A stretch of 64,000 nucleotides of DNA. It comes from a phage. This document shows positions 10,487 to 64,000 of the stretch, piece after piece; the stretch's first letter is position 1; the number at the start of each line of letters is the position of its first letter. The stretch lies in assembly GCA_036252695.1 (NCBI GenBank), contig GCA_036252695.1_4122.1, one strand, 5' to 3'. The notes below the pieces were generated by a model. The model was not told the DNA's origin. It searched no databases and was given only the letters and a program-made list of their open reading frames with translations. A program made the position numbers and the translations under genes.

Positions 10487-10487
10487 T

Positions 10488-15308: not shown

Positions 15309-15315
15309 AAAGTAC

Positions 15316-15374: not shown

Positions 15375-15394
15375 CTAACAAAAAGGAAAGTATA

Positions 15395-15714: not shown

Positions 15715-15724
15715 AAATAATTGA

Positions 15725-15976: not shown

Positions 15977-15980
15977 TAGT

Positions 15981-16008
15981 TTGACAATAGAAATTAAACG
16001 AGTATAAT
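15981..16008 (+). promoter_or_regulatory. sigma70 promoter
   Basis: -35 TTGACA 15981-15986, -10 TATAAT 16003-16008. Confidence 0.7.
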
Positions 16009-16040
16009 ACTTACATCAACCACTGATAAGGAAACATAAA

Positions 16041-16316: not shown

Positions 16317-16319
16317 GTA

Positions 16320-16382
16320 TTGACAAAGTATCTTAGTACTGTATAATAGTTTACATCAAGTGAGGGGAAACGGTTCCCCTCC
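16320..16382 (+). promoter_or_regulatory. sigma70 promoter + 5' stem-loop cassette
   Basis: -35 TTGACA 16320-16325, -10 TATAAT 16342-16347, hairpin gaggggaaacggttcccctc; duplicated at 16591. Confidence 0.75.
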
Positions 16383-16404
16383 TAACAAAGAGAGAGAAAT
16401 AAAA

Positions 16405-16587
16405 ATGGCTAAGTGCACTATCTGCAAGAAAGAAATAGTATTAGTTCCAAGTGCCCGTGAACGTGCCGCTCGGTTTGGTGGCAAAGCGTCAGACTATACA
16501 AAAATGTTTACTGCCCATACAGCTTGCCAGGTAGCAAAACGTTCACAAGAAAGCGTAGAATTAATGCGTAAACTTTCCAAAAAATAA
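16405..16587 (+). CDS. small Cys-containing protein (possible zinc ribbon)
   Basis: MAKCTICKKE...HTACQ; RBS agagagaga. Confidence 0.55.
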   Translation: MAKCTICKKEIVLVPSARERAARFGGKASDYTKMFTAHTACQVAKRSQESVELMRKLSKK

Positions 16588-16590
16588 GTA

Positions 16591-16652
16591 TTGACAAAGT
16601 ATCTTAGTACTGTATAATAGTTTACATCAAGTGAGGGGAATGGTTCCCCTCC
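16591..16652 (+). promoter_or_regulatory. sigma70 promoter + 5' stem-loop cassette
   Basis: -35 TTGACA 16591-16596, -10 TATAAT 16613-16618, hairpin gaggggaatggttcccctc. Confidence 0.75.
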
Positions 16653-16674
16653 TAACAAAAAGAGAGAAATTAAA

Positions 16675-16998
16675 ATGACTATGATCCTTACCCAGAAAGT
16701 AGAAATGAAAATTGTAACTTCCTTTGACATTAAAGTTAATCGGTGGACTGATAGCCACGGCAATACTTACCACTCATGCTACGTGTCTGCATTGATTGGT
16801 GACCGCTGGGAAGACCTGGGACATGAAACCTTTACTTACGGTTACGGTACACAAGGCGAATACACGGGCTTGGAGATCATTAAAGAAACCGTTATAGGTT
16901 TCAACCCGAAAGAAAAAGTTATTCACCGCATCGAGGAAGAGATCAACAAAGAAATTACAGTTCGTTACTACGATGTAAAACGTAAGAAAGACATGTAA
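16675..16998 (+). CDS. hypothetical early protein (paralog of 9591..9914)
   Basis: NRWTDSHGNTYHSC...ETFTYGYG...VKRKKDM. Confidence 0.7.
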   Translation: MTMILTQKVEMKIVTSFDIKVNRWTDSHGNTYHSCYVSALIGDRWEDLGHETFTYGYGTQGEYTGLEIIKETVIGFNPKEKVIHRIEEEINKEITVRYYDVKRKKDM

Positions 16999-17020
16999 TA
17001 GAATCCATTTAAAGTACTAT

Positions 17021-17049
17021 TTGACATTGCCCAGATAGTACTTTATAAT
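17021..17049 (+). promoter_or_regulatory. sigma70 promoter
   Basis: -35 TTGACA 17021-17026, 17-nt spacer, -10 TATAAT 17044-17049. Confidence 0.7.
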
Positions 17050-17097
17050 AGACTCTAACTTGTAGTACTAATTAACTTAACTAATAGGATGTACACC

Positions 17098-17493
17098 ATG
17101 ATTACTAAATTCTTCGCTACCCGTGAACAAGCTCGCATCGTTGCCCGTGAAGAAGGTGAAACATTTAAAGACATGGGCAAAGATGCACCGAAAGGACAAC
17201 GCTGGGCGGTACAGTTCAAAGAGATCTCTGATATTGTGAATTCACCTGAACCAGTACTTACTGAAGCAGAACTGAAGAAAGCTCAAGAACTGGCTGAAGT
17301 ACTGAACGCTCAAGATGACTTCTTGAAAGGTTCTGATATTCAAGTACAAGTGAATAGTAATGCATGGACTCACGCGGATCACCTGGCAAACCTTAAGCGT
17401 CCAAGTGAACTGATTCGTAACCAGAAAGAGATTCGTCATGACCGTAAAGGAAACCGTGTAACAGTATACAGTAAACGCCGCCAGGTTATCTAA
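17098..17493 (+). CDS. hypothetical early protein (paralog of 4056..4322)
   Basis: FATREQARIVAREEGETFKDMG...RKGNRVTVY. Confidence 0.65.
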   Translation: MITKFFATREQARIVAREEGETFKDMGKDAPKGQRWAVQFKEISDIVNSPEPVLTEAELKKAQELAEVLNAQDDFLKGSDIQVQVNSNAWTHADHLANLKRPSELIRNQKEIRHDRKGNRVTVYSKRRQVI

Positions 17494-17516
17494 TAACTTT
17501 GCAGTACTAACAACAC

Positions 17517-17542
17517 GGCGGGAACTATTCCCGCCTTTTTTA
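17517..17542 (+). terminator. intrinsic terminator
   Basis: ggcgggaactattcccgcc + ttttttat. Confidence 0.7.
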
Positions 17543-17555
17543 TAGGATAAACAAA

Positions 17556-17810
17556 ATGATTAAGGTTCAACTATCAAACGATAATGTATTACGGGTACAC
17601 TATAAAGCCCCACAGAGAATCATCACAAAGGCCGTACAGCTTGCTAATGAGTTTATTAATGGTAGTCTATTGCCTAGGAAGTTAAGCAACGGGAAACTAC
17701 GTGTTATCGATGTAGACACTAACAATAGAATAGTGATCGAGAGTACTGGAAAAATTAATCTATATGAACACCAACAATACAATAAAAAAATAAAACTAAT
17801 ATCACGTTGA
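17556..17810 (+). CDS. hypothetical protein
   Basis: RBS aggataa; ORF track. Confidence 0.55.
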   Translation: MIKVQLSNDNVLRVHYKAPQRIITKAVQLANEFINGSLLPRKLSNGKLRVIDVDTNNRIVIESTGKINLYEHQQYNKKIKLISR

Positions 17811-17835
17811 CAGTACTCAAATGTTTTAGTATTAT
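17807..17835 (+). promoter_or_regulatory. sigma70 promoter
   Basis: -35 TTGACA 17807-17812, -10 TATTAT 17830-17835; module duplicated at 18088. Confidence 0.65.
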
Positions 17836-17868
17836 GTATCTATACCAACACAGAGAGAGAGAAACAAA

Positions 17869-18087
17869 ATGAAATTATCTAAAATCGAAAAGAAAACTAT
17901 TGATGAAGCAGTGAAGCACGGTTATACCTTTCGTAATGATTCACACTTCACTAGTTTTCAACAGGGAAACCGTACCATCAAAAAACTCATTGATAAAGGT
18001 TTACTCACTAAGGTTGATAACGGGAACGGTGTAGAATATCAACCGACAGAAGACGCATTATCACTAAAGAAATATTCTATTATCTAA
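17869..18087 (+). CDS. hypothetical protein
   Basis: RBS agagagaga; ORF track. Confidence 0.6.
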   Translation: MKLSKIEKKTIDEAVKHGYTFRNDSHFTSFQQGNRTIKKLIDKGLLTKVDNGNGVEYQPTEDALSLKKYSII

Positions 18088-18116
18088 TTGACAGTACTCA
18101 AATGTTTTAGTACTAT
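18088..18116 (+). promoter_or_regulatory. sigma70 promoter
   Basis: -35 TTGACA 18088-18093, -10 TACTAT 18111-18116. Confidence 0.6.
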
Positions 18117-18144
18117 GTACGCATACCAACACGGGGAAAACAAA

Positions 18145-18387
18145 ATGATTACTTTAGAAAAACGTATCAAAGAGACTACAACGCTGGTGGAACTGTTAAC
18201 CGTTCTTAAATGCCGGGTAACTCCATTCAGTACACCGGACTTTATCAACATGGTGGACGTTAACGGTCGATATCGTATTGCGGTCGAACAAGGTACGGCA
18301 AAAGTATTCAGTACTAAAAATACGCGTGAAGTATTCCACGCAGTTCAAGTAAAAAAAGTAGTTGCCATTGATAGTAAAGTACTGTAA
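18145..18387 (+). CDS. hypothetical protein
   Basis: ATG 18145 after acggggaaaacaaa RBS region. Confidence 0.55.
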   Translation: MITLEKRIKETTTLVELLTVLKCRVTPFSTPDFINMVDVNGRYRIAVEQGTAKVFSTKNTREVFHAVQVKKVVAIDSKVL

Positions 18388-18418
18388 TATAGTTTCATTA
18401 ACTCAAGGAGTCAACACA

Positions 18419-19003
18419 ATGCGTAACTATACTAAATTCATCCGTTCACTTCATGCAATGGAAACCAACAAAGAGATCCTTTCAGCTTGTCGGTTAGCTG
18501 GACTGGAGATCGTCGGTGCGGGTTCTTCCCGTATTGTATTCGCTTTAAATGATCGGTTAGTGATTAAGGTCGCGAATTGTGATGCGGGTGTAGAACAAAA
18601 TGAAACTGAATGTAAGGTATGGAATTTTTTAGATTATGACCGTCCGCACCTTAAACAGTACTTTGCTAAAGTGCATATGCATTTATGCGATCCTGATAAT
18701 CTGTTTATTGTTATGGATCGTTTGAGTACTGCAAGCAAAGGCAGTGTAAAGCATGTAAACGCGTGCAATGAGTTAAAGTACAATATTAAACGTAATACGG
18801 TAGAACGCCATCACCATTTCGCTGATGCTCTCAATCACGTTGATGATACATTATCCACACTAACGATAAGAGATATCAGAAAACAGAATATCGGCCAGGA
18901 TCGCAACGGCTTGATTAAAGTACTTGATTACGGTTTAACCCGCAATATCTGGAATCAGTACTATAAAAAACGTGATGTTAACGCGATAACTATAACACGA
19001 TAA
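18419..19003 (+). CDS. putative minimal Ser/Thr protein-kinase-like protein
   Basis: Gly-rich loop GAGSSRIVF, VIKV lysine, catalytic-loop-like IRDIRKQNI, DFG-like LDYG; RBS aaggag. Confidence 0.45.
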   Translation: MRNYTKFIRSLHAMETNKEILSACRLAGLEIVGAGSSRIVFALNDRLVIKVANCDAGVEQNETECKVWNFLDYDRPHLKQYFAKVHMHLCDPDNLFIVMDRLSTASKGSVKHVNACNELKYNIKRNTVERHHHFADALNHVDDTLSTLTIRDIRKQNIGQDRNGLIKVLDYGLTRNIWNQYYKKRDVNAITITR

Positions 19004-19011
19004 AAAAGATT

Positions 19012-19205
19012 AAAAAAGGGATTGACTCCAGTCAGTCCCTTTGCTATTATATATTCATTGAGAGATAACTCACTGACCCATAGGGTGCGGAAGTGTATCT
19101 ATTATATAAGTATTCAGTACTGAAAACTATTTTATAAAAAGTACTTGCAAACTATCTCAATGAGCGTATAATGTTTTATATCGAGAGGGGGAAATGGTTC
19201 TCCCT
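19012..19205 (+). repeat. dispersed ~190-bp intergenic module (near-identical to 11717-11910)
   Basis: Same hairpin/promoter, acccatagggtgcgg box and promoter cassette. Confidence 0.85.
19145..19205 (+). promoter_or_regulatory. sigma70 promoter + 5' stem-loop cassette
   Basis: -35 TTGCAA 19145-19150, -10 TATAAT 19167-19172, hairpin agggggaaatggttctccct. Confidence 0.75.
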
Positions 19206-19227
19206 GGTACTAAAAGGAATCAAGACG

Positions 19228-19449
19228 ATGACTACTATGACATGCGTTCACGCTTCAAATCTTCTGAATGATGCAGCATTTAAAGCAGGTGAAGAATATC
19301 AATGCTATCGGGATGAAAATAAAAAAGTTTTCGTCGTTGATGCTAACGGTTTCCATATTGAATTACAATCCGGCTTCACTGGTGTTGATGGTAAATCAGT
19401 ATGGGGCGTACAGGATGATAACGGTACATATCATTTTAAACGTAATTAA
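19228..19449 (+). CDS. hypothetical early protein
   Basis: RBS aaaagga; ATG 19228. Confidence 0.6.
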   Translation: MTTMTCVHASNLLNDAAFKAGEEYQCYRDENKKVFVVDANGFHIELQSGFTGVDGKSVWGVQDDNGTYHFKRN

Positions 19450-19452
19450 GTA

Positions 19453-19511
19453 TTGACAAAGTATATCAGTACTGTATAATAGTTTACATCAAGGGGAGAA
19501 TAGCTCTCCCC
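19453..19511 (+). promoter_or_regulatory. sigma70 promoter + 5' stem-loop cassette
   Basis: -35 TTGACA 19453-19458, -10 TATAAT 19475-19480, hairpin ggggagaatagctctcccc. Confidence 0.75.
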
Positions 19512-19533
19512 ACCAATAAAAGGAAACAAAATT

Positions 19534-19806
19534 ATGTCCAGCTACTCCGCTACTATGATTATTAAAGATATGAACGGTAATCCTACTTCTGCTGGTGGAT
19601 CATTTGGTAACATTAATTTAGATGGGCGGTTATCAATTGAATCAGCCATCAATGCAGCGAAAGAAGTTTTTAAGAATGAATGTACTGTAAGCAAACTGGA
19701 TTATATGGGCTTCGCTATCGAGAAAACTAATCGTTTTGTGGACTACAAAAAACCACTGATGATTGATACTAACCTGAAAGCAAACGAAGTGGAATACTTA
19801 TTATGA
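19534..19806 (+). CDS. hypothetical early protein
   Basis: RBS aaaggaaa; ORF track. Confidence 0.65.
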   Translation: MSSYSATMIIKDMNGNPTSAGGSFGNINLDGRLSIESAINAAKEVFKNECTVSKLDYMGFAIEKTNRFVDYKKPLMIDTNLKANEVEYLL

Positions 19807-19994
19807 CAGTAGAAGAAGTTAAAAAAGTACTGGCAGTACTACGCTATCATAATCATTGTAAGGTGAAGAATGATCCTGATTATCTTGATTCATCGCTGGA
19901 AGAGGATACACTACAAGCAATAAGCCATATGCAAAAAATGCTTAAGCGTATGACCGAAAAGAACAGGCCGGACTATATCGGAAATAAAATTTAA
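19803..19994 (+). CDS. hypothetical protein
   Basis: ATGA start/stop overlap with upstream gene. Confidence 0.5.
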   Translation: MTVEEVKKVLAVLRYHNHCKVKNDPDYLDSSLEEDTLQAISHMQKMLKRMTEKNRPDYIGNKI

Positions 19995-20001
19995 AAAGTA
20001 C

Positions 20002-20058
20002 TTGCATTGTAAGTAAAACAAAGTATAATGTTTTACATAGGGGGAGATATCCTCCCCC
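20002..20058 (+). promoter_or_regulatory. sigma70 promoter + 5' stem-loop cassette
   Basis: -35 TTGCAT 20002-20007, -10 TATAAT 20024-20029, hairpin gggggagatatcctccccc. Confidence 0.75.
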
Positions 20059-20077
20059 ACTAATAAGGAGTACTAAA

Positions 20078-20302
20078 ATGGCTAACTTTGATGAACTGAT
20101 GCGGGAAGTAGCTACCCTGGCAGAAGAGAAGAAATCATTTGATTCTATCTATAACACCGCTTACAGTGATTCAGTACTGGCATGTACTCAGGATCAAAAA
20201 GATGAACTGATCGCCACCTATCATGAAGCATGGAAGTATTACCGCCAATGGGAGAAAGAAGAAAGCGAGTCTACCATCAACGGCATCAATAATCTAATCT
20301 AA
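20078..20302 (+). CDS. hypothetical acidic protein
   Basis: RBS aaggag; ORF track. Confidence 0.65.
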   Translation: MANFDELMREVATLAEEKKSFDSIYNTAYSDSVLACTQDQKDELIATYHEAWKYYRQWEKEESESTINGINNLI

Positions 20303-20320
20303 AGTTTTATTTCAGTACTA

Positions 20321-20349
20321 TTGACAATGCGTGATAGTACTGATGTAAT
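20321..20349 (+). promoter_or_regulatory. sigma70 promoter
   Basis: -35 TTGACA 20321-20326, -10 TGTAAT 20344-20349. Confidence 0.55.
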
Positions 20350-20377
20350 AACTTTACTAACTACAAGGGGAAACATA

Positions 20378-20635
20378 ATGGAACAGTTCACACAATATCG
20401 GGTAAATCCTCAAGCTATGGCCTACGTAGAAGACCATAAAACATTACCAGTACAGACACCAATCAAAGGCCGTATCTATCGTGCTATGCAGTGGAATAAC
20501 GCCTATAATGGCTATAAAGCGGTAGCGGCTGCAATGTACTTAGGGGATGGCGAATGGTTTGATCCAAATAATCCTGGTGCACTAGATAGTACTGAACAAA
20601 TGACATGGGCCGACTATATCGAAGATATTTCATAA
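20378..20635 (+). CDS. hypothetical protein
   Basis: RBS aagggga; ATG 20378. Confidence 0.6.
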   Translation: MEQFTQYRVNPQAMAYVEDHKTLPVQTPIKGRIYRAMQWNNAYNGYKAVAAAMYLGDGEWFDPNNPGALDSTEQMTWADYIEDIS

Positions 20636-20642
20636 AAACTAT

Positions 20643-20703
20643 TTGACAGTACTACAAGATAATGTATAATGTTTTACATAGAGCGGGGGAATAGTTCTCC
20701 CGC
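20643..20703 (+). promoter_or_regulatory. sigma70 promoter + 5' stem-loop cassette
   Basis: -35 TTGACA 20643-20648, -10 TATAAT 20665-20670, hairpin gcgggggaatagttctcccgc. Confidence 0.75.
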
Positions 20704-20723
20704 ACCTTTAGGAGTAAAACATT

Positions 20724-20924
20724 ATGTCAATCGCTAACGAATTGGTTGCAGTACTGAATGAAGCAAAAGCCAACTGCATCGATGTACAGATCAAAGAGCT
20801 TGGCAATGGCTTGATCGGCTGTACTTGTACAGTGCAAACGGCTACCGATTATCGGGAAGTGGAATCACTCGAATCACTGGTACGGTATATTAAAATCCTG
20901 GTAGAAGATTGGAGAATCATCTAA
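20724..20924 (+). CDS. hypothetical protein
   Basis: RBS taggagt; ORF track. Confidence 0.6.
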   Translation: MSIANELVAVLNEAKANCIDVQIKELGNGLIGCTCTVQTATDYREVESLESLVRYIKILVEDWRII

Positions 20925-20940
20925 CAAAAAAGAATAAAAA

Positions 20941-21105
20941 AAAGGGATTGACTCCGGTCAGTCCCTTTGCTATTATATACGCATAGACAAAAACTAGCCC
21001 ACAGGGTGCAGAGAAGTATCTATAAGATAGTTAATAACGGTGAGTAACTATCTGCTGGTGGATGTAATGCCAGTACTCAAAACTATTTCAAAAAAAGTAT
21101 TGACA
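20941..21105 (+). repeat. dispersed intergenic module (copy similar to 15725-15900)
   Basis: aaagggattgactccggtcagtccctttgctattatatacgcatag + agcccacagggtgc. Confidence 0.85.
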
Positions 21106-21127
21106 AAGTATATCAGTACTGAGATAA
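21100..21127 (+). promoter_or_regulatory. sigma70 promoter
   Basis: -35 TTGACA 21100-21105, -10 GATAAT 21122-21127; module duplicated at 21417. Confidence 0.65.
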
Positions 21128-21182
21128 TGTATCTCGTAGGGCGGCAATAGTGCAGCCCACCTCCAAAAGAGCGAGATATAAA

Positions 21183-21398
21183 ATGGCGTTAACCAAACAA
21201 GAAATTATCGACCGTATCAAAGAGTCAACTGGCTGGTATGTTGGGGACCGTTTAATTGTTAAAGTTCTCGATTATTCAAATAATCCTCTTGCACCGGAAC
21301 CAGTGGCATACAAATTATCCTGGATATCTGCGTTTAGCGGTAAGCGTGAAAGATGTGTGTACTATCCGAACACAGTCGGGCTACAGTTCTGTAAATAA
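21183..21398 (+). CDS. hypothetical protein
   Basis: ATG 21183; ORF track frame. Confidence 0.55.
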   Translation: MALTKQEIIDRIKESTGWYVGDRLIVKVLDYSNNPLAPEPVAYKLSWISAFSGKRERCVYYPNTVGLQFCK

Positions 21399-21416
21399 AT
21401 TTTAATAGAAAAAGTA

Positions 21417-21445
21417 TTGACAAAGTATATCAGTACTGCAATAAT
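21417..21445 (+). promoter_or_regulatory. sigma70 promoter
   Basis: -35 TTGACA 21417-21422, -10 AATAAT 21440-21445. Confidence 0.6.
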
Positions 21446-21498
21446 GTATCTCGTAGGGCGGCAATGGTGCGACGGCCCACAAAGTTAGGAGATTCACC

Positions 21499-21825
21499 AT
21501 GAGTACTTCAATCGCTATCGTTAAAGCTTTCATCCGTACCAATTTCGACCGCATTACTGTTGATGGTAATGATCGGGAAGTAGAATACTCTTTCATTGTT
21601 GCACAAACCGCAAACGGTGCACGCTATATCTTAAACGATAGTGAAGCTAACCACTACTTCTATAATAAAGGATTACACTACATCCCTAGCGAAGTAGTCT
21701 ACAGTAAGATGAATAAGCTGGTAGACAAGATTAACGCTAAAGGTACTATCGATTTACAGTACTGGACCGAAACCGATCCAGAATACGGATCACATCGTTA
21801 CCTGAATCCAGGAATTAAAATGTAA
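21499..21825 (+). CDS. hypothetical protein
   Basis: RBS taggaga; ORF track. Confidence 0.65.
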   Translation: MSTSIAIVKAFIRTNFDRITVDGNDREVEYSFIVAQTANGARYILNDSEANHYFYNKGLHYIPSEVVYSKMNKLVDKINAKGTIDLQYWTETDPEYGSHRYLNPGIKM

Positions 21826-22813: not shown

Positions 22814-22843
22814 ATGATTGATATTATTTTCAAGGGAGTCCCT

Positions 22844-23041
22844 ATGCGTATTTTAACTCAAGCAGAACACCACGAAAGACTTATCAATAACATGGCTATG
22901 ATAATGTATAAGTCACATGACCGTGGTATTGCCTATAAGCGTGAATTAATTATGGCACTATTCATTGGGACTAACTATCAGGAAAGGTATGTCAAGGATT
23001 GGATTTGGTATTTAATTGAAGATGTAACGAGTAAACTATGA
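22844..23041 (+). CDS. LGTNYQ-family small protein (A1)
   Basis: RBS caaggga; motif FIGTNYQERYV. Confidence 0.6.
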   Translation: MRILTQAEHHERLINNMAMIMYKSHDRGIAYKRELIMALFIGTNYQERYVKDWIWYLIEDVTSKL

Positions 23042-23238
23042 AAATGCGTAAATTAACCGAAAAAGAATATCAAGCACTGTTACGTAAAAACTTCACAAAG
23101 ATTTATAATACAGACTCACACGTAGAACGAATGGAGTTATACCTTTTGATTACATTGGGAACTAACTATCAGGATGCATGGGTAACGAAATATGTGGATA
23201 CATTGAAAAATGAAATTTTGTCCACGAGGAAACAATGA
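23038..23238 (+). CDS. LGTNYQ-family small protein (A2)
   Basis: ATGA coupling; TLGTNYQDAWV. Confidence 0.6.
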   Translation: MKMRKLTEKEYQALLRKNFTKIYNTDSHVERMELYLLITLGTNYQDAWVTKYVDTLKNEILSTRKQ

Positions 23239-23444
23239 AAACTATAACACGAACCCAATCATACGGTCTTATCTTGAAATACATGGACTTAATGGTGGAT
23301 ATCAGCAAAGACCTTCCTAAAACTGAAATTGAAGTTGCAAGAGCAGAGATCCGTATGTTGGCTGTACTGAACACAAACCATCAGGAAGAGTATGTTCAAG
23401 ATTGGATTCGATTTTTAATAGAAGATATTAAGAGTAAACTATGA
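23235..23444 (+). CDS. LGTNYQ-family small protein (A3)
   Basis: ATGA coupling; VLNTNHQEEYV. Confidence 0.6.
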   Translation: MKTITRTQSYGLILKYMDLMVDISKDLPKTEIEVARAEIRMLAVLNTNHQEEYVQDWIRFLIEDIKSKL

Positions 23445-23653
23445 TTATATTAACACCTGAAGAATATAAGAAACGTTTTAAATCTGTCCAGGCTGAAATA
23501 TTACTTATATACCTTTCAAATGCAGATCTTAACTTATCAAGGGTAATGGAGAAGGATTTACTTATGGGTGCATTTTTGGATACAGACTTTCAGGAGTATT
23601 ATGTAGGAGAATACTTTATTGCACTTCAGAACCACATTAAGAGTAAACTATGA
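23441..23653 (+). CDS. LGTNYQ-family small protein (A4)
   Basis: ATGA coupling; FLDTDFQEYYV. Confidence 0.6.
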   Translation: MIILTPEEYKKRFKSVQAEILLIYLSNADLNLSRVMEKDLLMGAFLDTDFQEYYVGEYFIALQNHIKSKL

Positions 23654-23865
23654 TTATTCTAGAAAAATCATATCAATATACTGAACGCATCGCTGCCAGA
23701 CAACTTGAAATCCTCATAATATACGAAGAGACTTCTGATTTAAACTTAGCCGAGGTATTGGAAAATGAAATACTTTTGGGTGCATTCTTGGGAACAGACT
23801 ATCAGGAGTATTATGAGGAAAAGTATTTGTCATCTCTTGAGAAATACGTCAGGAGCAAACTATGA
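23650..23865 (+). CDS. LGTNYQ-family small protein (A5)
   Basis: ATGA coupling; FLGTDYQEYYE. Confidence 0.6.
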   Translation: MIILEKSYQYTERIAARQLEILIIYEETSDLNLAEVLENEILLGAFLGTDYQEYYEEKYLSSLEKYVRSKL

Positions 23866-24089
23866 AACATTTAAGTAATATAGAGAAGAATAAAATTATC
23901 ATTGCTGTAATAAACAAATATTTTACACTTCCACAAAAAGAATGTTTATCTATAAGGGAACACAGGATAAACACCACCGAGATTCGCATGTTGGCTGTAC
24001 TGGGGACTAACTTCCAAGAAGGCTATGTTCATGAGCACATCGTTGCACTCACTAATTACATAATGGACAAATGTAATGAACATCATTAA
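23862..24089 (+). CDS. LGTNYQ-family small protein (A6)
   Basis: ATGA coupling; VLGTNFQEGYV. Confidence 0.6.
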   Translation: MKHLSNIEKNKIIIAVINKYFTLPQKECLSIREHRINTTEIRMLAVLGTNFQEGYVHEHIVALTNYIMDKCNEHH

Positions 24090-24300
24090 TAACTTTGAAT
24101 ACGAGGCCCGTGCTAAGAGTGCCAGAAAAAAAGAGAACACCATTTACTTCACTATGATGTACTTACAATGGACTGAAATTGAAGAAAAGGTTGCTGAAGT
24201 ATGGATGTTGGAATTCATGGGGACGCAGTATCAGAATAGGTTTGCGGGTGAGTATATCAATGTTCTTATGAAACAAATAGAAAGAAAGGAAAAGAACTAA
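24076..24300 (+). CDS. LGTNYQ-family small protein (A7)
   Basis: FMGTQYQNRFA. Confidence 0.55.
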   Translation: MNIINNFEYEARAKSARKKENTIYFTMMYLQWTEIEEKVAEVWMLEFMGTQYQNRFAGEYINVLMKQIERKEKN

Positions 24301-24458
24301 TGGTTTTCATTAACATATCTGACCAACTCGATACTAAACTAAAAGTCGAGCAGAGTGAGGGATGGATGCTGTACTTTCTTGGAACTTCTCATCAGAATTT
24401 TTATGTCCATGAACACATAGTTGCACTCACAAATCTAATAAGGGATAAATGTAAATGA
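24300..24458 (+). CDS. LGTNYQ-family small protein (A8, 52 aa; not in ORF track)
   Basis: TAATG overlap; FLGTSHQNFYVHEHIVALTNLI. Confidence 0.5.
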   Translation: MVFINISDQLDTKLKVEQSEGWMLYFLGTSHQNFYVHEHIVALTNLIRDKCK

Positions 24459-24712
24459 AACACTTGACGAACGATGAATATTCACTTAGAATTCGAAAGC
24501 TCACCCCAGAAGCAAGACTAATCTACGATGACGGTGAACTTTCATGGAACGAGATGAAAGTTAAAGTTCATGAGCTATGGTTGCTGTACTTTGTGGGAAC
24601 CCAATATCAAGAGAAATATTGTACCGATTATCTTGAACAACTAATGGATCTTATACAGATAAAACTAAATGAACGAATTGTGGAAAAATATGAAGACTTT
24701 ATCAAGCACTGA
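24455..24712 (+). CDS. LGTNYQ-family small protein (A9)
   Basis: ATGA coupling; FVGTQYQEKYC. Confidence 0.55.
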   Translation: MKHLTNDEYSLRIRKLTPEARLIYDDGELSWNEMKVKVHELWLLYFVGTQYQEKYCTDYLEQLMDLIQIKLNERIVEKYEDFIKH

Positions 24713-24941
24713 GTATCAGACTGCCCTCTTCTCTCTTCTTAACACCCTTAGAAAAAACTATGCATTACATGGTGCACCTGAATTGGATGTTATCAACGGT
24801 GATGTTTATCTTATGAAATTCATTGGAACAAACTATCAAGAACTGTTCACTCAACGATATATCTCTGCACTGAGAAACGAAATATCAGATAAAACCCGCC
24901 AAGCCCAAAGAGAATGGAAGAGACAATGCAACAAAGACTAA
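24690..24941 (+). CDS. LGTNYQ-family small protein (A10)
   Basis: FIGTNYQELFT; start uncertain (24669 or 24690). Confidence 0.5.
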   Translation: MKTLSSTEYQTALFSLLNTLRKNYALHGAPELDVINGDVYLMKFIGTNYQELFTQRYISALRNEISDKTRQAQREWKRQCNKD

Positions 24942-25177
24942 ATCACAAAATGTATTTTAAACTATTACAGAATCTAGGACAAAAACACTATGATACAGTA
25001 TCTGAAATATTACCCTATGATATCATGCGTTTAATTCATAGTGAGGCAGAGATGCTTGTACTGATGACAGGCACTGATAAAACAGCAATTACCAAATCTA
25101 TAGATATGTTCATCGATGCACACTGCCAACACATTAGAACCGAGATATGGAGACGTGAGAATGAAAATCCTGACTGA
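24926..25177 (+). CDS. divergent member of the small-protein array (A11)
   Basis: LMTGTDKTAIT degenerate motif; start uncertain. Confidence 0.4.
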   Translation: MQQRLNHKMYFKLLQNLGQKHYDTVSEILPYDIMRLIHSEAEMLVLMTGTDKTAITKSIDMFIDAHCQHIRTEIWRRENENPD

Positions 25178-25376
25178 GCATGAGTATTACAATAGGTTAA
25201 GAACTATACAAGGAAAAGTCTCGTGGACTTTTTTAGATAATTCTATTGCAGAAGCGGACCGATGTGTTATAATAGCTGAAATGAAGCTATTACTCTTCAT
25301 TGGGACAAACTATCAAAGTATCTACATAGACGCATGGTTAAGCAGCTTACGTCTGAAGTCGGTGAGTTTAAAATGA
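25161..25376 (+). CDS. LGTNYQ-family small protein (A12)
   Basis: RBS ggagacg; FIGTNYQSIYI. Confidence 0.55.
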   Translation: MKILTEHEYYNRLRTIQGKVSWTFLDNSIAEADRCVIIAEMKLLLFIGTNYQSIYIDAWLSSLRLKSVSLK

Positions 25377-25591
25377 GAAAATTAATAGGTTTCGAATATG
25401 TTAAGCTTCTACAAACCTGTGGAATCAGAAGGAGAATGATTCAAAAGGATAAAAGAATTGCCGAAGAACGAAAGTATATAATGATAACTGAACTTTATGT
25501 CTTAACACTCTTAGGCACAAACTATCAACACACTTATGTAGACCTATGGATCGATGCACTACAGAAAGAGGTTAAAAGTAAATGCAAATGA
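25373..25591 (+). CDS. LGTNYQ-family small protein (A13)
   Basis: ATGA coupling; LLGTNYQHTYV. Confidence 0.6.
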   Translation: MRKLIGFEYVKLLQTCGIRRRMIQKDKRIAEERKYIMITELYVLTLLGTNYQHTYVDLWIDALQKEVKSKCK

Positions 25592-25800
25592 TTAATTTAA
25601 GTAAAGACGAATTTTATGTTATACTGGCGAAAACTTATCCAGCACGTAAGGCCGTTTATGATAGTCACATTATTGAACCCTCAAAGAAGTTGATTTTAGT
25701 AAATGAGATAAAGATGCTTTCAGTCTTAGGAACAAACTATCAAGAGAATGCTGTACTGTTGTTAATTGATGCCCTCAAGAGAGAGATACAAAGTAAATGA
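25582..25800 (+). CDS. LGTNYQ-family small protein (A14)
   Basis: VLGTNYQENAV. Confidence 0.6.
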   Translation: MQMINLSKDEFYVILAKTYPARKAVYDSHIIEPSKKLILVNEIKMLSVLGTNYQENAVLLLIDALKREIQSK

Positions 25801-26021
25801 TTAATTTAACTTACCATGAATATCAAAAACGTTTAAATGCATCCAGAGATATAAGGATTCAAATATTCAATAACAAAAGATTGAAGCCTGATATCAGGAA
25901 AATCAAAATCATAGAAGCAGAGTTGTGCAACTTTCTAGGGACGAACTATCAGGCAGGTAAGGTAAAAAACTATCTTAAAGAACTCATGAATAGTATTGAA
26001 AATAAATGTAAGGGTAATTAA
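25797..26021 (+). CDS. LGTNYQ-family small protein (A15)
   Basis: ATGA coupling; FLGTNYQAGKV. Confidence 0.6.
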   Translation: MINLTYHEYQKRLNASRDIRIQIFNNKRLKPDIRKIKIIEAELCNFLGTNYQAGKVKNYLKELMNSIENKCKGN

Positions 26022-26022
26022 C

Positions 26023-26289
26023 ATGAAAATGATCAATTTAAGTAAAGATGAATATAACGAGCGACGTGCAAAAATCTCAACTAAACGCACCGAAATCTAT
26101 TACAGCGAAGAAATCAAACACGACAAGAAGATGATTATGATACGTGAGTTGATAATGGGTGCTATGCTAGGAACTAACTATCAAGAACAAGAGGTACAAC
26201 TCGTATTAAATGAATTACTAATGGAAATCAGAGGTAAGCTGTACTTTCATCAAATGACCCGCCCACTAAGGTGTACTAGGAATGATTAA
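26023..26289 (+). CDS. LGTNYQ-family small protein (A16)
   Basis: MLGTNYQEQEV. Confidence 0.55.
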   Translation: MKMINLSKDEYNERRAKISTKRTEIYYSEEIKHDKKMIMIRELIMGAMLGTNYQEQEVQLVLNELLMEIRGKLYFHQMTRPLRCTRND

Positions 26290-26497
26290 CATCACATTAC
26301 AAGAAAGGTTCATACGCATCAACTATGCAATTTCCAAATTAGATGCTACAATAGGATTTCAAAGTCTACCATACAAAACCAGATTGTTATTAGAGTGTGA
26401 AGCTAAGTTGGGTGTACTGTTAGGGACGCAACACCAACAACGATATGTGGAAATCTGGATTGACCTTTTAACCCAAAATATATATGAGAGAATGTAA
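26282..26497 (+). CDS. LGTNYQ-family small protein (A17)
   Basis: LLGTQHQQRYV. Confidence 0.55.
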   Translation: MINITLQERFIRINYAISKLDATIGFQSLPYKTRLLLECEAKLGVLLGTQHQQRYVEIWIDLLTQNIYERM

Positions 26498-26728
26498 ATG
26501 CAAAATGAAATGATATACATAACGAATGAAGAATTTCAAGAGAAGATGTTAAAAACAAAAAACATTAATCTTAAGTTCGTTCCAAATCAATCAATATATG
26601 AAGTATCTGCAAATGTATTGTTTCAGAAGTTACCATACGTTCTTGGAACTGATAAACAAGAATTTATGGTTCAAAATATGATTGAACATCTTATGATGAG
26701 TATTAAGGAAAAAGTAAATGCAAAATGA
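26498..26728 (+). CDS. LGT..Q-family small protein (A18)
   Basis: YVLGTDKQEFMV; N-term MQNEMIY shared with A19. Confidence 0.55.
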   Translation: MQNEMIYITNEEFQEKMLKTKNINLKFVPNQSIYEVSANVLFQKLPYVLGTDKQEFMVQNMIEHLMMSIKEKVNAK

Positions 26729-26963
26729 AATGATATACTTAACATATAATGAATACGTCGAGAGATTAGTTAGTGCCAAGAGATATACAAATCAACTTCC
26801 TCACAACCCAAACCAAACCCCAGAGGAAAAGAATGCGGAAGCTCTATTCCAAGCACTACCATACCTTCTTGGAACTGATAGGCAGGAGTATCACGTTGAA
26901 CGTATAATTAAATCTCTTAAAATCACTATTAAGGAAAAGATACATGAAACACTTGACAGATGA
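26718..26963 (+). CDS. LGT..Q-family small protein (A19)
   Basis: YLLGTDRQEYHV. Confidence 0.55.
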   Translation: MQNEMIYLTYNEYVERLVSAKRYTNQLPHNPNQTPEEKNAEALFQALPYLLGTDRQEYHVERIIKSLKITIKEKIHETLDR

Positions 26964-27174
26964 TGAACATGGGCTTATAGTAATGGATGTAATCAACATC
27001 GAATACAAAAAGTTGATACGCTATCGTTGTTATGAAGATAAGCAACTAGTTCTAGCAGAACAGAAGTTGTTTCGACTCTTAAACACAAACTACCAAGCAC
27101 AATACGAAGAATCGTATATGTACCTTTTGGCGAGGAAAGCAAAAAGAGATTATGAAAATTTTAAGCAAAGGTGA
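26944..27174 (+). CDS. LGTNYQ-family small protein (A20)
   Basis: LLNTNYQAQYE. Confidence 0.55.
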   Translation: MKHLTDDEHGLIVMDVINIEYKKLIRYRCYEDKQLVLAEQKLFRLLNTNYQAQYEESYMYLLARKAKRDYENFKQR

Positions 27175-27373
27175 TTCAGTAATATTACTTATAGAGAGTT
27201 CAAGTAAATTCTTAAACATAACACTGTCTGATATAGATGAAGATGATAAAGAAGTACTGAGAGCAGATTTAAGAGTACTGTTACATCTCGGAACAAACCT
27301 ACAAGAAGAATATGTAGAGTACTACATTGATGAACTTAAAGAATCAGTACTGAGAAGATGCAAATGCGAATGA
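27152..27373 (+). CDS. LGTNYQ-family small protein (A21)
   Basis: HLGTNLQEEYV. Confidence 0.55.
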   Translation: MKILSKGDSVILLIESSSKFLNITLSDIDEDDKEVLRADLRVLLHLGTNLQEEYVEYYIDELKESVLRRCKCE

Positions 27374-27585
27374 TTACCGACGAAGAATACCTAACAATTA
27401 TAAATGGATTGTTTTTGAAGTTGTTTGTTATTAACACATCAGATATACCAGATATGGATAAAATTATTAAGAGAAATGAAATCTATGTTCAAGCTACACT
27501 AGGGACTAACTATCAAGAATGCAATATTAATGATTATATTAATACACTTAAACGAGCGATTGAACTAAAATGCCAAAACCACTAG
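27358..27585 (+). CDS. LGTNYQ-family small protein (A22)
   Basis: TLGTNYQECNI. Confidence 0.55.
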   Translation: MQMRMITDEEYLTIINGLFLKLFVINTSDIPDMDKIIKRNEIYVQATLGTNYQECNINDYINTLKRAIELKCQNH

Positions 27586-27785
27586 GAACAGCAGAATACA
27601 TTGAACTCATGGGATTACACTTCTCATCCTTTCAGAAACTTATGCGAGAATCAAAGAATGATTTAGAATATACCATCAGAGGTTCAGAATTAAGAATGCT
27701 TCTCACCCTAGACACAGATTCCCAAGAGAGATTTGTCAATGAGCATATTAGAGCACTTTTAATGGAAATTCAAAGTAAACTATGA
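27570..27785 (+). CDS. LGTNYQ-family small protein (A23)
   Basis: TLDTDSQERFV. Confidence 0.55.
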   Translation: MPKPLGTAEYIELMGLHFSSFQKLMRESKNDLEYTIRGSELRMLLTLDTDSQERFVNEHIRALLMEIQSKL

Positions 27786-27997
27786 AGATAATATCAAATC
27801 AAGAGTACTTGGCACTATTCAGGAAGAATAATCACAAATATATGGCACTTGATTCAAGAACTGATATAAGTGAACTTGAAAAAAATCTTTTGCGTTCAGA
27901 GATGATAGTACTGACACTCTTAGGAACACAGCATCAAGAAAGAACTGTTAATTCACACATAGAAATACTTAAGAAGCTTATACAGGAAAAGTTATGA
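27782..27997 (+). CDS. LGTNYQ-family small protein (A24)
   Basis: ATGA coupling; LLGTQHQERTV. Confidence 0.6.
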   Translation: MKIISNQEYLALFRKNNHKYMALDSRTDISELEKNLLRSEMIVLTLLGTQHQERTVNSHIEILKKLIQEKL

Positions 27998-28215
27998 GAA
28001 TCATAACACAACAAGATATGTTTAAGTTCACAAGGGATTATGCATCTGAATTTGATGCTATATTATCAAAAAGTTACAACAACCCTTATACAGAAGATGT
28101 ACACTACAATGAATTATGGGTGTATATACTTTTAGGTACAGATCATCAAGAGCAAGCCGTACAGAGGTATTTGAGTGCTTTAAGTACTGCTACTGCTAAT
28201 GGAGTATGTGTTTAA
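27994..28215 (+). CDS. LGTNYQ-family small protein (A25)
   Basis: ATGA coupling; LLGTDHQEQAV. Confidence 0.6.
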   Translation: MRIITQQDMFKFTRDYASEFDAILSKSYNNPYTEDVHYNELWVYILLGTDHQEQAVQRYLSALSTATANGVCV

Positions 28216-46354: not shown

Positions 46355-46891
46355 ATGTTAGATAAAAAAATGAACTCTGGAACCCAATATAATCATCTTA
46401 AGTTGGATACATTCGAATCAGCTATCAGTACAGCACAAGATATAATTGATATTATCAAGTTCATTAAAGAAGATAAGTTCAAATGTGTGAAAATACTAAA
46501 TCGTTCAATGTACCGTGATAAAAATATTCATGTATCAGTACGTAGACCGAAAGATCAAGAAAGTGGGAGAGATTTCTATAACAACAGTGAGCAGTTCGAA
46601 TGTGAATATGATCCAGAATTTAGAGGTGGTTTCATGTGTTACAGTATGAAGGATACCTCACACATTGAGATACGTTCATCGAAAGGTGGCATACGTACAT
46701 TAGAGTTTATTGATATAGTTTTAAATCAGGAATACTACTTTCAACTATCATTATTGTTTCCTGCATACGATTTAGGAGTTCTATTCATGTATAAGTACTT
46801 TCATGAGCACTGGAATGAAGACTTCTATCTGGACTTAGAAGATTACCAATTAGTTTGGGAAGAAATGGTAGAACTTCGCAACCACTCTTGA
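46355..46891 (+). CDS. FQ-motif family protein (D-like)
   Basis: RBS tgaggt; NQEYYFQLSLLFP...FYLDLEDY. Confidence 0.55.
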   Translation: MLDKKMNSGTQYNHLKLDTFESAISTAQDIIDIIKFIKEDKFKCVKILNRSMYRDKNIHVSVRRPKDQESGRDFYNNSEQFECEYDPEFRGGFMCYSMKDTSHIEIRSSKGGIRTLEFIDIVLNQEYYFQLSLLFPAYDLGVLFMYKYFHEHWNEDFYLDLEDYQLVWEEMVELRNHS

Positions 46892-46917
46892 CACCCACCG
46901 ATTTTTTGTGATATAAT
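46888..46917 (+). promoter_or_regulatory. sigma70 promoter internal to the array
   Basis: -35 TTGACA 46888-46893, 18-nt spacer, -10 TATAAT 46912-46917. Confidence 0.6.
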
Positions 46918-61665: not shown

Positions 61666-61694
61666 GACAAATGATAAGTTAATGATATAATATA

Positions 61695-61729
61695 AGGTGA
61701 CAACATAATATGTTAGTCACCTTTTTTTA
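61695..61729 (+). terminator. intrinsic terminator
   Basis: aggtgac...gtcacct hairpin + ttttttt. Confidence 0.8.
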
Positions 61730-62270
61730 ATCCTGAAAGGTTCCCATAAGGAAATGATTAAAAGCCTAATCCACTCGAAAATGTAGAGGGTAGATGAGTA
61801 GTCCTTTCAGTACGAACAGCAGATGAAACCCGTTAGATGATGGCATAGTTTGAACCACTCACGGCAATGCGGCTGTATAAAGAACTCCAATAGGATAAAG
61901 AGAGTTCCTCGATAGACATATAAGGATCGCACCTTACCAATTATCTAAGGGAGATTTCATAAGAAATATGCGGTCGGAATTATACAATATAGTTGCGTCC
62001 AAATTTTGTGAAATCAAATACAAGTACTGGTCATATGGTATTTGTATTATGTGTCGGGATGTTTAAGACCGACGACCGTTGCTACAAGAACCGCGATAGA
62101 GAGAAACAGAGCAACCCGCTTTCGTCTCGTAAGAGAATTCGTGATATGAACTATGTGAAGGCCACCAGCGTCAAATTTTTTTGTTCTTTCCCCTGCGGGG
62201 GGATGAAATATGCTCAAGCAAACCCCGTCAATATTAATTAAAAGAAAATAGTACTTGTGTAGAATTAGAC
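61730..62270. other. GC-richer ORF-poor island with multiple hairpins (function unknown)
   Basis: No RBS-supported ORF; hairpins gtcgggatgtttaagaccgac, cccctgcgggggg, ctgaaagg...cctttcag; composition unlike flanks. Confidence 0.4.
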
Positions 62271-62345
62271 ATGCGTAGCATGATAATTCTACTGATGTTG
62301 ATGCAATCAACGTCACGTATATTCATTGATGTTTCCATAGGAATA

Positions 62346-62891
62346 ATGATGGCATTTATTAGAAAAGAAAAAACTGTTACTTATAAAACTTTGAATTTTG
62401 ATGATTGCATTAATCAATCACAAGACGAAGATATCTTTACTGGATATGTGGTTATTAAAGAAAAAGGATGCATTTCTTATATAAAGGAATTACAAAATGG
62501 AATTGAAGTAACTTCAGTTAAATTACTTCCTACTCAAAAACCAACAATATCAAAAGCCCAGTATGGTAATTATTTTGAAGAAAGATATAGTAATAATTCA
62601 ATAAGTGTTAAGGCTCATATTATTAAAGGAGAACTAGAAGGAGAATATAGAAAATACAACCCACAAGGAAAATGTGTTTGGGTTAAATACTTCAATTCAG
62701 GATATGATGTAACATCTGAAATTATAGAGTTCTTGGGTTTAAAATGTACCCCTGAGACTATTCATGATTACAAGTTCAATACTGAAGAAGAGTTTAATCT
62801 GATGATGCGTTACGGTTCACATTTTAAATTTTTATATGAATATAACATTGACAGTAGTACTTTTGATAAGATAGTACACAACTGTCTCTAA
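62346..62891 (+). CDS. hypothetical protein
   Basis: ORF-track ATG at 62271 lacks an RBS; ATG 62346 has agga upstream; start uncertain. Confidence 0.4.
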   Translation: MMAFIRKEKTVTYKTLNFDDCINQSQDEDIFTGYVVIKEKGCISYIKELQNGIEVTSVKLLPTQKPTISKAQYGNYFEERYSNNSISVKAHIIKGELEGEYRKYNPQGKCVWVKYFNSGYDVTSEIIEFLGLKCTPETIHDYKFNTEEEFNLMMRYGSHFKFLYEYNIDSSTFDKIVHNCL

Positions 62892-62907
62892 CAAAAGGAA
62901 TTATATA

Positions 62908-63429
62908 ATGTCGAAGAAGGATGCTTCGAAAAAACATTCAGTACATTTCAGTACTGGAAAAGATAACTGGACAACTCCCAAAGATTTCTTTGAAGATTTG
63001 GATGAGTTATGGGGATTTACACTTGATGCTGCTTGTGTTGATGAGACTGCATTGTGTGATAATTTTTTCACTCCAGAAGATGATTCACTATCACAGGATT
63101 GGGGAAATAATATAGTTTGGTTGAATCCACCATACAGTGACTTGAAAACTTGGTTATCTAAAGCAGTAGATGCATATAATAACGGGGCAACTGTAGTTAT
63201 TCTTGTACCCTCAAGAACCGACACAATTGCTTTTCAGGATTATGCTGCTAAAATATGTGATTGTATTTGTTTTATTAAGGGAAGATTACGATTTGGTATA
63301 CCAGAAGAACCCGATAAGAAAACAGATTCAGCACCATTTCCTTCGTGTCTGATAGTACTGGATAAGTACTTAACCACTGCTAAAATCAATTATCTTAAAT
63401 CTCTTGGGTTGGTGATGAAGAATTTATGA
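62908..63429 (+). CDS. DNA N6-adenine methyltransferase (small phage Dam-like, NPPY motif)
   Basis: WTTPKDFFEDL...WLNPPYS; (D/N)PPY is catalytic motif IV of amino-methyltransferases; 173 aa. Confidence 0.65.
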   Translation: MSKKDASKKHSVHFSTGKDNWTTPKDFFEDLDELWGFTLDAACVDETALCDNFFTPEDDSLSQDWGNNIVWLNPPYSDLKTWLSKAVDAYNNGATVVILVPSRTDTIAFQDYAAKICDCICFIKGRLRFGIPEEPDKKTDSAPFPSCLIVLDKYLTTAKINYLKSLGLVMKNL

Positions 63430-63959
63430 AAGAAACATGTGTATTAACGTTTGGTCGTATTAATCCTGTACATCGTGGACATGGTTTAGTTTTTGAAAAG
63501 GCCAAAACATTACAAGAACAGTACAATGCTGATTTAAAAATATATCTAAGCACCAGTACTGACAATATAAAAAACCCACTCCCACCTGAACTAAAAATGT
63601 ATTATACAGAGGGATTCTATCCTTCAGTGCAAGAGAACATCTACACAGAAGACAATCTATTTGATATAATGAGAGAACTGGATGGAAAGTACTTAGATGT
63701 TCTTTTCATTTGTGGTTCTGACCGTATTGATTCTTTTCAAAAAACTCTTGACATGTACAATGGTAAGTTGTATAATTTTTGTAGTATAAAAGCAATTCAG
63801 GCAGGTATTGACCGTAATGTAAGTCAATATAGCTCAACACAAATGCGTAACTTCGCAAAAAATGAAGATTTTGATAGTTTTCGTGAGTTTTTACCTGGAA
63901 ATGACGAGGACTTAAAAATACAATTATTTGAAGACGTTATAAAATACATGAGGAAATAA
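63426..63959 (+). CDS. HxGH-type nucleotidyltransferase (NMN adenylyltransferase-like)
   Basis: FGRINPVHRGH (GxxxPxHxGH) and YSSTQMR (SxTxxR); ATGA coupling to the methyltransferase. Confidence 0.6.
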   Translation: MKETCVLTFGRINPVHRGHGLVFEKAKTLQEQYNADLKIYLSTSTDNIKNPLPPELKMYYTEGFYPSVQENIYTEDNLFDIMRELDGKYLDVLFICGSDRIDSFQKTLDMYNGKLYNFCSIKAIQAGIDRNVSQYSSTQMRNFAKNEDFDSFREFLPGNDEDLKIQLFEDVIKYMRK

Positions 63960-63961
63960 TT

Positions 63962-64000
63962 ATGTCAGTACTGTTCAAAACCAATCCAGTACTTTGGGAT
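63962..64000 (+). CDS. hypothetical protein, 5' end only (runs off window)
   Basis: ATG 63962 directly after upstream stop; MSVLFKTNPVLWD... Confidence 0.3.
   Translation, partial: MSVLFKTNPVLWD

Follow-up and report, generated by a model that had tools for sequence, protein, structure and literature searches.

The two genes described here, which encode a Dam-family methyltransferase and a nucleotidyltransferase of the HxGH superfamily, are probably ordinary accessory genes, independent of each other, within a long array of co-directional genes in an Asteriusvirus phage, where block synteny and tight gene packing make them neighbours. They lie in a stretch of phage DNA of 64,000 nucleotides that was analysed at its full length and is hereafter called the window. 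The original prediction had joined methylation against restriction to NAD+ replenishment against NAD-depleting defence systems in a co-regulated counter-defence cassette. Such a coupling is unsupported, although not strictly refuted, as the profile searches carried out for both proteins placed neither of them in an unrelated family; the counter-defence reading is weakened by the evidence given below. Nothing points to a shared function of the two products. The case also carries a more general caution, namely that a protein with HxGH and SxxxxR motifs does not in itself indicate NAD salvage and that an ATGA overlap does not in itself indicate functional coupling.

The gene pair and its place in the phage genome

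The coordinates, motifs and overlap of the pair, i.e. an NPPY-containing ORF of 173 amino acids joined by ATGA to an HxGH/SxTxxR ORF of 177 amino acids, are as originally described (Table 1), with the ATG of ORF2 at 63426-63428 and the TGA of ORF1 at 63427-63429. Both ORFs appear to be real genes, since ORF1 scores 110.8 bits against the Pfam Dam family and ORF2 has homologues that are 59-99% identical and retain its motifs. No support was found for the opposite-strand ORFs that overlap either of them, and Rfam and repeat scans over 61-64 kb of the window returned no result.

Table 1. Features of the methyltransferase-nucleotidyltransferase locus, in window coordinates
Feature	Position	Strand	Remarks
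Shine-Dalgarno-like AAGGA	62895-62899	+	Putative, from sequence reading; 8 nt 5' of the ORF1 ATG
ORF1, Dam-family methyltransferase (= 121Q gp417)	62908-63429	+	ATG start, 173 aa
Weak Shine-Dalgarno-like GGTGA	63411-63415	+	Putative, from sequence reading; within the methyltransferase 3' end, 10 nt 5' of the ORF2 ATG
ATGA start/stop overlap of ORF1 and ORF2	63426-63429	+	Read from the sequence
ORF2, "cytidylyltransferase-like" HxGH nucleotidyltransferase (= 121Q gp418)	63426-63959	+	ATG start, 177 aa
Perfect sigma-70 consensus TTGACA-17-TATAAT	63748-63776	+	12/12 match; inside ORF2, ~185 nt 5' of the next gene

Over the region 62271-64000, nucleotide identity is 99.9% with the Escherichia phages phAPEC6 and 121Q and 91-99% with some 30 further jumbo coliphages of the genus Asteriusvirus, and the genome that hosts the pair is that of a 350-kb Asteriusvirus jumbo phage of E. 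coli. The pair is also present in phAPEC6, PBECO4, G17, Sharanji and others, and in 121Q it sits in a long series of small genes that share its strand. Public annotation already covers both genes, which are not new in that sense: the RefSeq record of 121Q (NC_025447) lists gene 417 as "DNA methyltransferase" and gene 418 as "cytidyltransferase", and the labels "DNA (N-6-adenine) methyltransferase" and "cytidyltransferase" are carried by the phAPEC6/121Q records. In some GenBank records gp418 is mislabelled "ribonucleotide reductase A".

Overlaps of the ATGA kind are common in the window, where 21 of the 141 same-strand neighbouring ORF pairs overlap by 4 nt and 62 of the 141 overlap to some extent. 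The two genes are likewise adjacent in Klebsiella phage RCIP0023 (63% and 58% identity), in which they also overlap, in Cronobacter phage GAP32 (42% and 39% identity), in which a 3-nt gap replaces the overlap, and in Yersinia phage fHe-Yen9-04, in which they are separated by an 8-nt gap and the second gene has a separate annotated ribosome-binding site. The overlap is thus a frequent arrangement that is not kept in two of the relatives, and the co-regulation that had been read from it is not borne out. We consider it likely that the ATGA reflects the tight gene packing of the genome and not a dedicated two-enzyme module. Co-transcription with the neighbouring genes is probable for both, and the overlap may permit some translational coupling.

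The adjacency itself is block synteny confined to the Rak2-like jumbo phages, since the homologous flanking genes 415, 416, 419 and 421 are also collinear, giving the conserved order gp415-416-417-418-419-421 across this group. Elsewhere the methyltransferase gene does not adjoin the nucleotidyltransferase gene, neither in the PA5oct-like phage PAC2 and Sinorhizobium phage Phosso nor in any of seven T4-like loci (Stenotrophomonas phage DLP6, Methylophilales phage Melnitz, Vibrio phage EniLVp02 and cyanophages Syn9, P-RSM6, P-SSM5 and S-SKS1), and none of 50 long multidomain nucleotidyltransferase homologues carries a Dam domain. These gene contexts were compiled record by record, a locus-level search with a narrow alignment having recovered 121Q alone. 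The pairing, which had been called unusual, is therefore a lineage-wide feature of Rak2-like phages that is absent from the other nucleotidyltransferase-bearing phages examined. It is kept down to about 40% protein identity in four genera, and from synteny alone a functional link is possible.

The perfect sigma-70 consensus inside ORF2 overlaps the codons of a conserved LDxYNGxLYNF motif. Where 0.23 perfect matches of this kind would be expected in the window there are 13, every one of them on the + strand, and the other 12 are intergenic. The equivalent site is perfect in RCIP0023 and imperfect in GAP32 and fHe-Yen9-04.

Family assignment of the two proteins

ORF1, which is 100% identical to gene 417 of 121Q, was originally predicted to be an N6-adenine methyltransferase, and this assignment is confirmed by its match to Pfam PF05869 Dam (GA 28.1, E 7e-32), in which residues 16-156 align to profile positions 7-149 of 169. 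The NPPY of motif IV is found at residues 73-76 (nt 63124-63135) and the sequence LDAAC at residues 39-43. Further matches were obtained to phrog_111 "DNA methyltransferase" (E 7e-57) and to the PADLOC orphan methyltransferase model PDLC03726 (E 3e-34), while the NCBIfam equivalog TIGR01712 phage_N6A_met scored 91.5 bits, narrowly under its cut-off of 97.05; a single-sequence PDB search returned noise only. Dam homologues are present in 2126 phage records, among them T1-like, Stx-converting, Vibrio and Gordonia phages. ORF1 can thus be placed solidly, by profile, in PF05869 as an ordinary phage orphan adenine methylase. Characterised Dam members of this family methylate adenine at N6 within GATC. 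In the window GATC is present and depleted, occurring at 138 sites where 233 would be expected. The non-specific Hia5-type methylase was considered as a model and rejected, as its DPPY lies at about residue 194 after FxGxG in a different architecture, and no specificity was inferred from it.

ORF2 carries HRGH at residues 16-19 (nt 63471-63482), SSTQMR at residues 136-141 (nt 63831-63848), GSDR at 97-100 and YNG at 111-113, and in an alignment of 37 diverse homologues H19, S136 and R141 are invariant. The match of ORF2 itself to Pfam PF01467 CTP_transf_like, at 17.3 bits, is under the GA of 21, and FAD_syn is sub-threshold with the same score; the orthologues of GAP32 (27.4 bits) and fHe-Yen9-04 (31.7 bits) score above GA for PF01467. 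Much stronger matches were found to the PHROGs families named "cytidyltransferase", phrog_3041 (E 8.5e-58) and phrog_395 (E 1e-24). The fold is of the Rossmann-like alpha/beta type that belongs to the HxGH nucleotidyltransferases. A Foldseek search of BFVD gave TM values of 0.84-0.89 against the S-RIM2, P-TIM68 and S-PM2 proteins; cyanophage homologues give 0.85-0.9, as compared with only about 0.6 for PPAT and NadD.

A word-indexed homologue search recovered close relatives only, whereas an exhaustive profile search returned 3419 representative clusters (50% identity) at E<=1e-3, many of them of 500-1200 amino acids with the shared domain at the N-terminus. The family occurs in 566 phage records, of which more than 80% are T4-like cyanophages, where the protein is named "cytitidyltransferase". 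No match was obtained in a single-sequence PDB search, no PADLOC model covers this nucleotidyltransferase, and a literature search on "cytitidyltransferase" found no paper. Sequence and fold place ORF2 in a very large, phage-specific branch of HxGH nucleotidyltransferases, of which it is a minimal member with one domain, and at an equal distance from PPAT and the NMNATs.

Membership of the HxGH superfamily is the part of the NMNAT-like description of ORF2 that stands. The NMNAT assignment does not, the NCBIfam NMNAT models NadD TIGR00482 and NF000840 scoring 19.8 bits against a cut-off of 112.45 and 15.3 against 150, respectively. A profile of the ORF2 family searched against the PDB ranked PPAT first, with the NMNATs no better; its alignments to NadM and NadR were confined to positions 3-71, the N-terminal motif region, and that to the NMNAT chain 9x6f to positions 7-71. 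A phmmer search of ORF2 against the NadM-Nudix protein of GAP32 (GAP32_112) gave nothing at E<=10.

NAD+ reconstitution, DUF6267 and other readings of the pair

Pathways by which phages reconstitute NAD+ do exist, are common and comprise two genes each, namely Adps and Namat in NARP1, Nampt and Nmnat in NARP2, and PnuC with a NadR-like protein in NARP3. The whole annotation of 121Q lists no Nampt, NMNAT, NadM, PnuC or NadR. The Nampt (PF04095/PF18127) that NARP2 calls for in the same phage was absent from 121Q and the window, and in place of the adjacent PnuC and bifunctional NMNAT-kinase of NARP3, the neighbours of ORF2 are the Dam gene and genes for small hypothetical proteins. A hidden Nampt in 121Q was considered and rejected: no NAPRTase domain was found in those proteins without an assigned function that are of Nampt size (~380-620 aa), and tblastn with the NadM-Nudix and Nampt proteins of GAP32 found neither in any piece of 121Q or in the window, the Nampt matches being noise (E>=3) where a Sir2 control reached 2e-65. 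By these searches, this phage lacks an enzyme for turning nicotinamide into NMN, and the proposed NAD salvage is left without a Nampt, NadM, PnuC or NadR partner. ORF2 is not demonstrably a member of the NMNAT, NARP2, NARP3 or CoaD families.

GAP32 provides an informative comparison, as it carries a canonical module of GAP32_112 (CTP_transf_like and NUDIX, i.e. NadM-Nudix) and GAP32_114 (NAMPT_N and NAPRTase) in addition to its Dam-nucleotidyltransferase pair. Since GAP32 has both, the NMNAT role in a NARP2-type pathway of these relatives does not fall to the ORF2-type nucleotidyltransferase. The Nampt/NadM-Nudix module has been noted for GAP32 and CBB (PMC5259590).

In five of the seven T4-like loci (Syn9, P-RSM6, Melnitz, DLP6 and EniLVp02) a DUF6267 gene lies directly 5' of the nucleotidyltransferase gene. 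The DUF6267 proteins share the invariant columns VK(Y/W)DGAP, EG(F/Y)V and K(L/I)V(D/N)R, which resemble motifs I, IV and V of ligases, as a motif-level lead only. Their identification as ligases is unsupported, a PDB profile search being negative, as was hhalign with the DNA and RNA ligases of the phage. No DUF6267 homologue was found in 121Q or the window, and a literature search on DUF5824 and DUF6267 found no paper. Among the 50 long nucleotidyltransferase homologues, 11 contain DUF5824 and three a P-loop kinase of the Zeta_toxin/AAA_33 type; fusions of nucleotidyltransferase homologues also reach the phrog_505 "polynucleotide kinase" family.

Three other readings of the pair were weighed against that of two independent accessory genes. 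If gp418 were a working NMN or NaMN adenylyltransferase co-expressed with the methylase, methylation would counter restriction while NAD+ was rebuilt after depletion by Sir2- or TIR-type systems. The HxGH and SxTxxR motifs, the wide occurrence of phage NAD+ reconstitution and the Sir2, Nudix and macro domain genes elsewhere in the phage genome agree with this, and the NMNAT idea is already in the literature as speculation, given the statement in a cyanophage paper that the "cytidyltransferase is a homolog of NMNAT", with such proteins often found in virion proteomes (PMC10665884). That statement, together with the kinase fusions in three of the 50 long homologues, was counted against independence. 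We nevertheless regard this reading as quite unlikely, as each known pathway needs a partner (Nampt, Adps with Namat, or PnuC with a NadR-like protein) and none was detected in 121Q or the window, as GAP32 keeps a true Nampt and NadM-Nudix beside its own Dam-nucleotidyltransferase pair, as the scores against the NMNAT equivalogs fall far under their cut-offs with PPAT scoring at least equally, and as the overlap is generic for the genome and is not kept in GAP32 or fHe-Yen9-04. NAD-depleting defences leave nicotinamide and ADP-ribose, and an NMNAT by itself is unable to turn these back into NAD+.

It is unlikely, by a narrow measure less so, that gp418 belongs to a pathway for nucleic acids or a cofactor that T4-like phages also have, in which DUF6267 would be the ancestral partner, the protein acting alone or with other partners in Rak2-like phages and its adjacency to Dam being incidental. 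The position of DUF6267 directly upstream in most of the T4-like loci, its ligase-like KxDG, EGFV and KLVxR-type columns, the fusions to kinases, to the polynucleotide kinase family and to DUF5824, and the report of cyanophage homologues in virion proteomes (PMC10665884) all speak for it; the evidence nevertheless comes from a handful of loci, DUF6267 has no profile similarity to ligases in the PDB or by hhalign, and 121Q and the window are without a homologue. A joint role in DNA hypermodification, with the nucleotidyltransferase activating a group for later attachment to adenine or another base, is very improbable. Its sole favourable point is that the adjacency is conserved across four genera of Rak2-like phages; the genes flanking the pair encode small hypothetical proteins and include no transferase, glycosylase-like or other such gene, the great majority of phages carrying the nucleotidyltransferase have it without Dam, and Dam is not fused to it in any of the 50 multidomain homologues.

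Proposed activities and comparison with known systems

As two independent accessory genes, the pair would act as follows. The methylase gp417, whose family is established, would form N6-methyladenine in phage DNA by means of S-adenosylmethionine and the catalytic loop that carries its NPPY motif, both its target sequence and its role against restriction being presumptive. The nucleotidyltransferase gp418, with the fold and motifs of its superfamily, would most likely release PPi from ATP and transfer the AMP to a phosphorylated acceptor. ATP-using PPAT and NMNATs carry an ISSTxxR motif and CTP-using enzymes carry RTEGISTT. A preference for ATP and AMP is suggested for gp418 because its C-terminal motif resembles the former rather than the latter. 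For the acceptor, NMN or NaMN may be proposed tentatively and phosphopantetheine or another cofactor precursor is doubtful; the greater weight falls on an acceptor of a type not yet described for the HxGH superfamily.

It is also possible, although proposed only tentatively, that gp418 represents in minimal form a very large phage-specific adenylyltransferase family that may act on a substrate other than NMN and phosphopantetheine and whose usual partner in T4-like phages would be DUF6267. If this family acts with DUF6267, it may represent an undescribed phage pathway concerned with a nucleotide-linked cofactor or with nucleic-acid end processing. The phage "cytidyltransferase" is a core gene of marine cyanomyoviruses, of which the 177-aa gp418 is an easily assayed version, and under this proposal the single-domain gp418, coming from a jumbo phage of E. 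coli, would be a tractable point of entry to the family.

Among known systems, gp417 and gp418 of 121Q are identical to the window in ORF pair, order and overlap, and nothing material differs. The methylase resembles the phage orphan Dam proteins (PF05869/TIGR01712) of T1-like and Stx-converting phages in its profile match over the full length, its NPPY motif and its similar size and, like them, has no cognate endonuclease nearby; unlike TIGR01712 members it is below the equivalog cut-off. For ORF2, the resemblance to CoaD/PPAT is low, with only 14-17% identity, 26 bits and a TM of about 0.6, and an NCBIfam search reported no CoaD model. NadM-Nudix and NadR proteins have a Nudix or kinase domain, whereas ORF2 is a single 177-aa domain with neither, and the P-loop kinase fusions of the three long homologues are reminiscent of the NadR arrangement. 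A further system is the "cytitidyltransferase" of T4-like cyanophages (Syn9 gp184, S-PM2, S-RIM2; phrog_395/3041), which has the same nucleotidyltransferase domain, 30-38% identical to ORF2, and shares with it the invariant residues H19, N50, R100, Y111, N112, S136 and R141. The cyanophage proteins are of 380-1020 amino acids with additional N- and C-terminal regions, in some cases DUF5824, usually follow a DUF6267 gene and have been reported in virions, whereas ORF2 is the bare domain and follows Dam.

Consensus promoters and the site within the nucleotidyltransferase gene

By chance, 0.23 perfect sigma-70 consensus promoters (TTGACA-N16-18-TATAAT) would be expected in the window; it carries 13, all of them on the + strand (Table). 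Twelve of the sites are intergenic and lie ahead of a + strand ORF, at a distance of 21-58 nt in 11 cases and 294 nt in one, and many share an AGTACTG element directly ahead of the -10 hexamer. The remaining site is located inside the ORF of the HxGH nucleotidyltransferase (NTase), where it covers codons of the conserved LDxYNGxLYNF motif. This match could be a genuine internal promoter serving downstream genes, or a by-product of the AT-rich codons that encode the conserved residues. Klebsiella phage RCIP0023 likewise matches the consensus perfectly at the equivalent position, whereas GAP32 and Yen9-04 do not.

Coordinates of the features described (window positions unless a locus is named)
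Feature	Sequence	Position	Strand	Basis
Perfect sigma-70 consensus sites	Window	5006-20670, 46888-46917, 63748-63776	+	Sequence match
13th site, intragenic in NTase ORF	Window (L011, locus paired with the RCIP0023 site)	63748-63776 (L011 2811-2839)	+	Sequence match
Paralogous family, 21 ORFs	Window	22814-28215, plus 29558 and 43958
Second paralogous family, 8 members	Window	28.4-46.3 kb
Third paralogous family, 7 members	Window	39.9-49.1 kb
Gap of ~600 bp without convincing ORF, 5' of gp416 homologue	Window	61666-62270
NadM-Nudix NMNAT and Nampt	GAP32 (L018)	18570-21776
Place syntenic with GAP32 NadM-Nudix/Nampt	121Q (L007)	14734-18476
DUF6267 gene, T4-like phages	L003	1800-2759
DUF6267 gene	L013	583-1815
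DUF6267 gene	L014	832-2076
DUF6267 gene	L015	3532-4611
DUF6267 gene	L021	2202-3380

Paralogous ORF families, an ORF-poor gap and restriction sites

In the largest of the three paralogous families, 19 of the 21 members encode ~66-90 aa and are arranged in tandem within a single interval, many being joined by 4-nt overlaps. The gap upstream of the gp416 homologue contains promoter-like sites and had no match in Rfam; the syntenic gap of GAP32 has an annotated rho-independent terminator.

The tetranucleotide GCGC is absent both from window positions 1-64000 (~50 expected under a tri/dinucleotide model) and from ~313 kb of 121Q (L001, L004-L009; ~140 expected). Across the window and the 121Q pieces, GATC occurs at ~0.55-0.6 of expectation and the GC-rich 6-mer palindromes CCGCGG, CGGCCG, GGGCCC, GAGCTC and TGGCCA are likewise missing. 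This looks like strong restriction-site avoidance.

NAD-linked genes in GAP32 and 121Q

In GAP32, the gene for an Ig-domain tail protein is separated from a Sir2-Nudix pair by genes for a NadM-Nudix NMNAT and for a Nampt. Neither of these two genes is present at the syntenic place in 121Q, which is occupied by ClpP- and HslV-like protease genes; 121Q retains Sir2 and a Nudt16-like Nudix as an overlapping pair, along with a macro-domain protein and two more Nudix genes.

NTase homologues and their DUF6267 neighbour

Several GenBank/UniProt records wrongly label NTase homologues as 'ribonucleotide reductase A' or 'NrdB', and a homologue from one Vibrio phage carries the label 'DNA helicase'. The wrong labels, for which KM507819 (121Q), MK773491 (7t3) and KF156339 (S-MbCM25) were flagged, reflect an annotation error that has propagated.

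A gene for a DUF6267 protein usually lies ahead of the NTase homologue in T4-like phages. Profile comparisons seeking a ligase relationship for DUF6267 confirmed none; its invariant columns, VK(Y/W)DGAP, EG(F/Y)V and K(L/I)V(D/N)R, resemble motifs I, IV and V of ligases.
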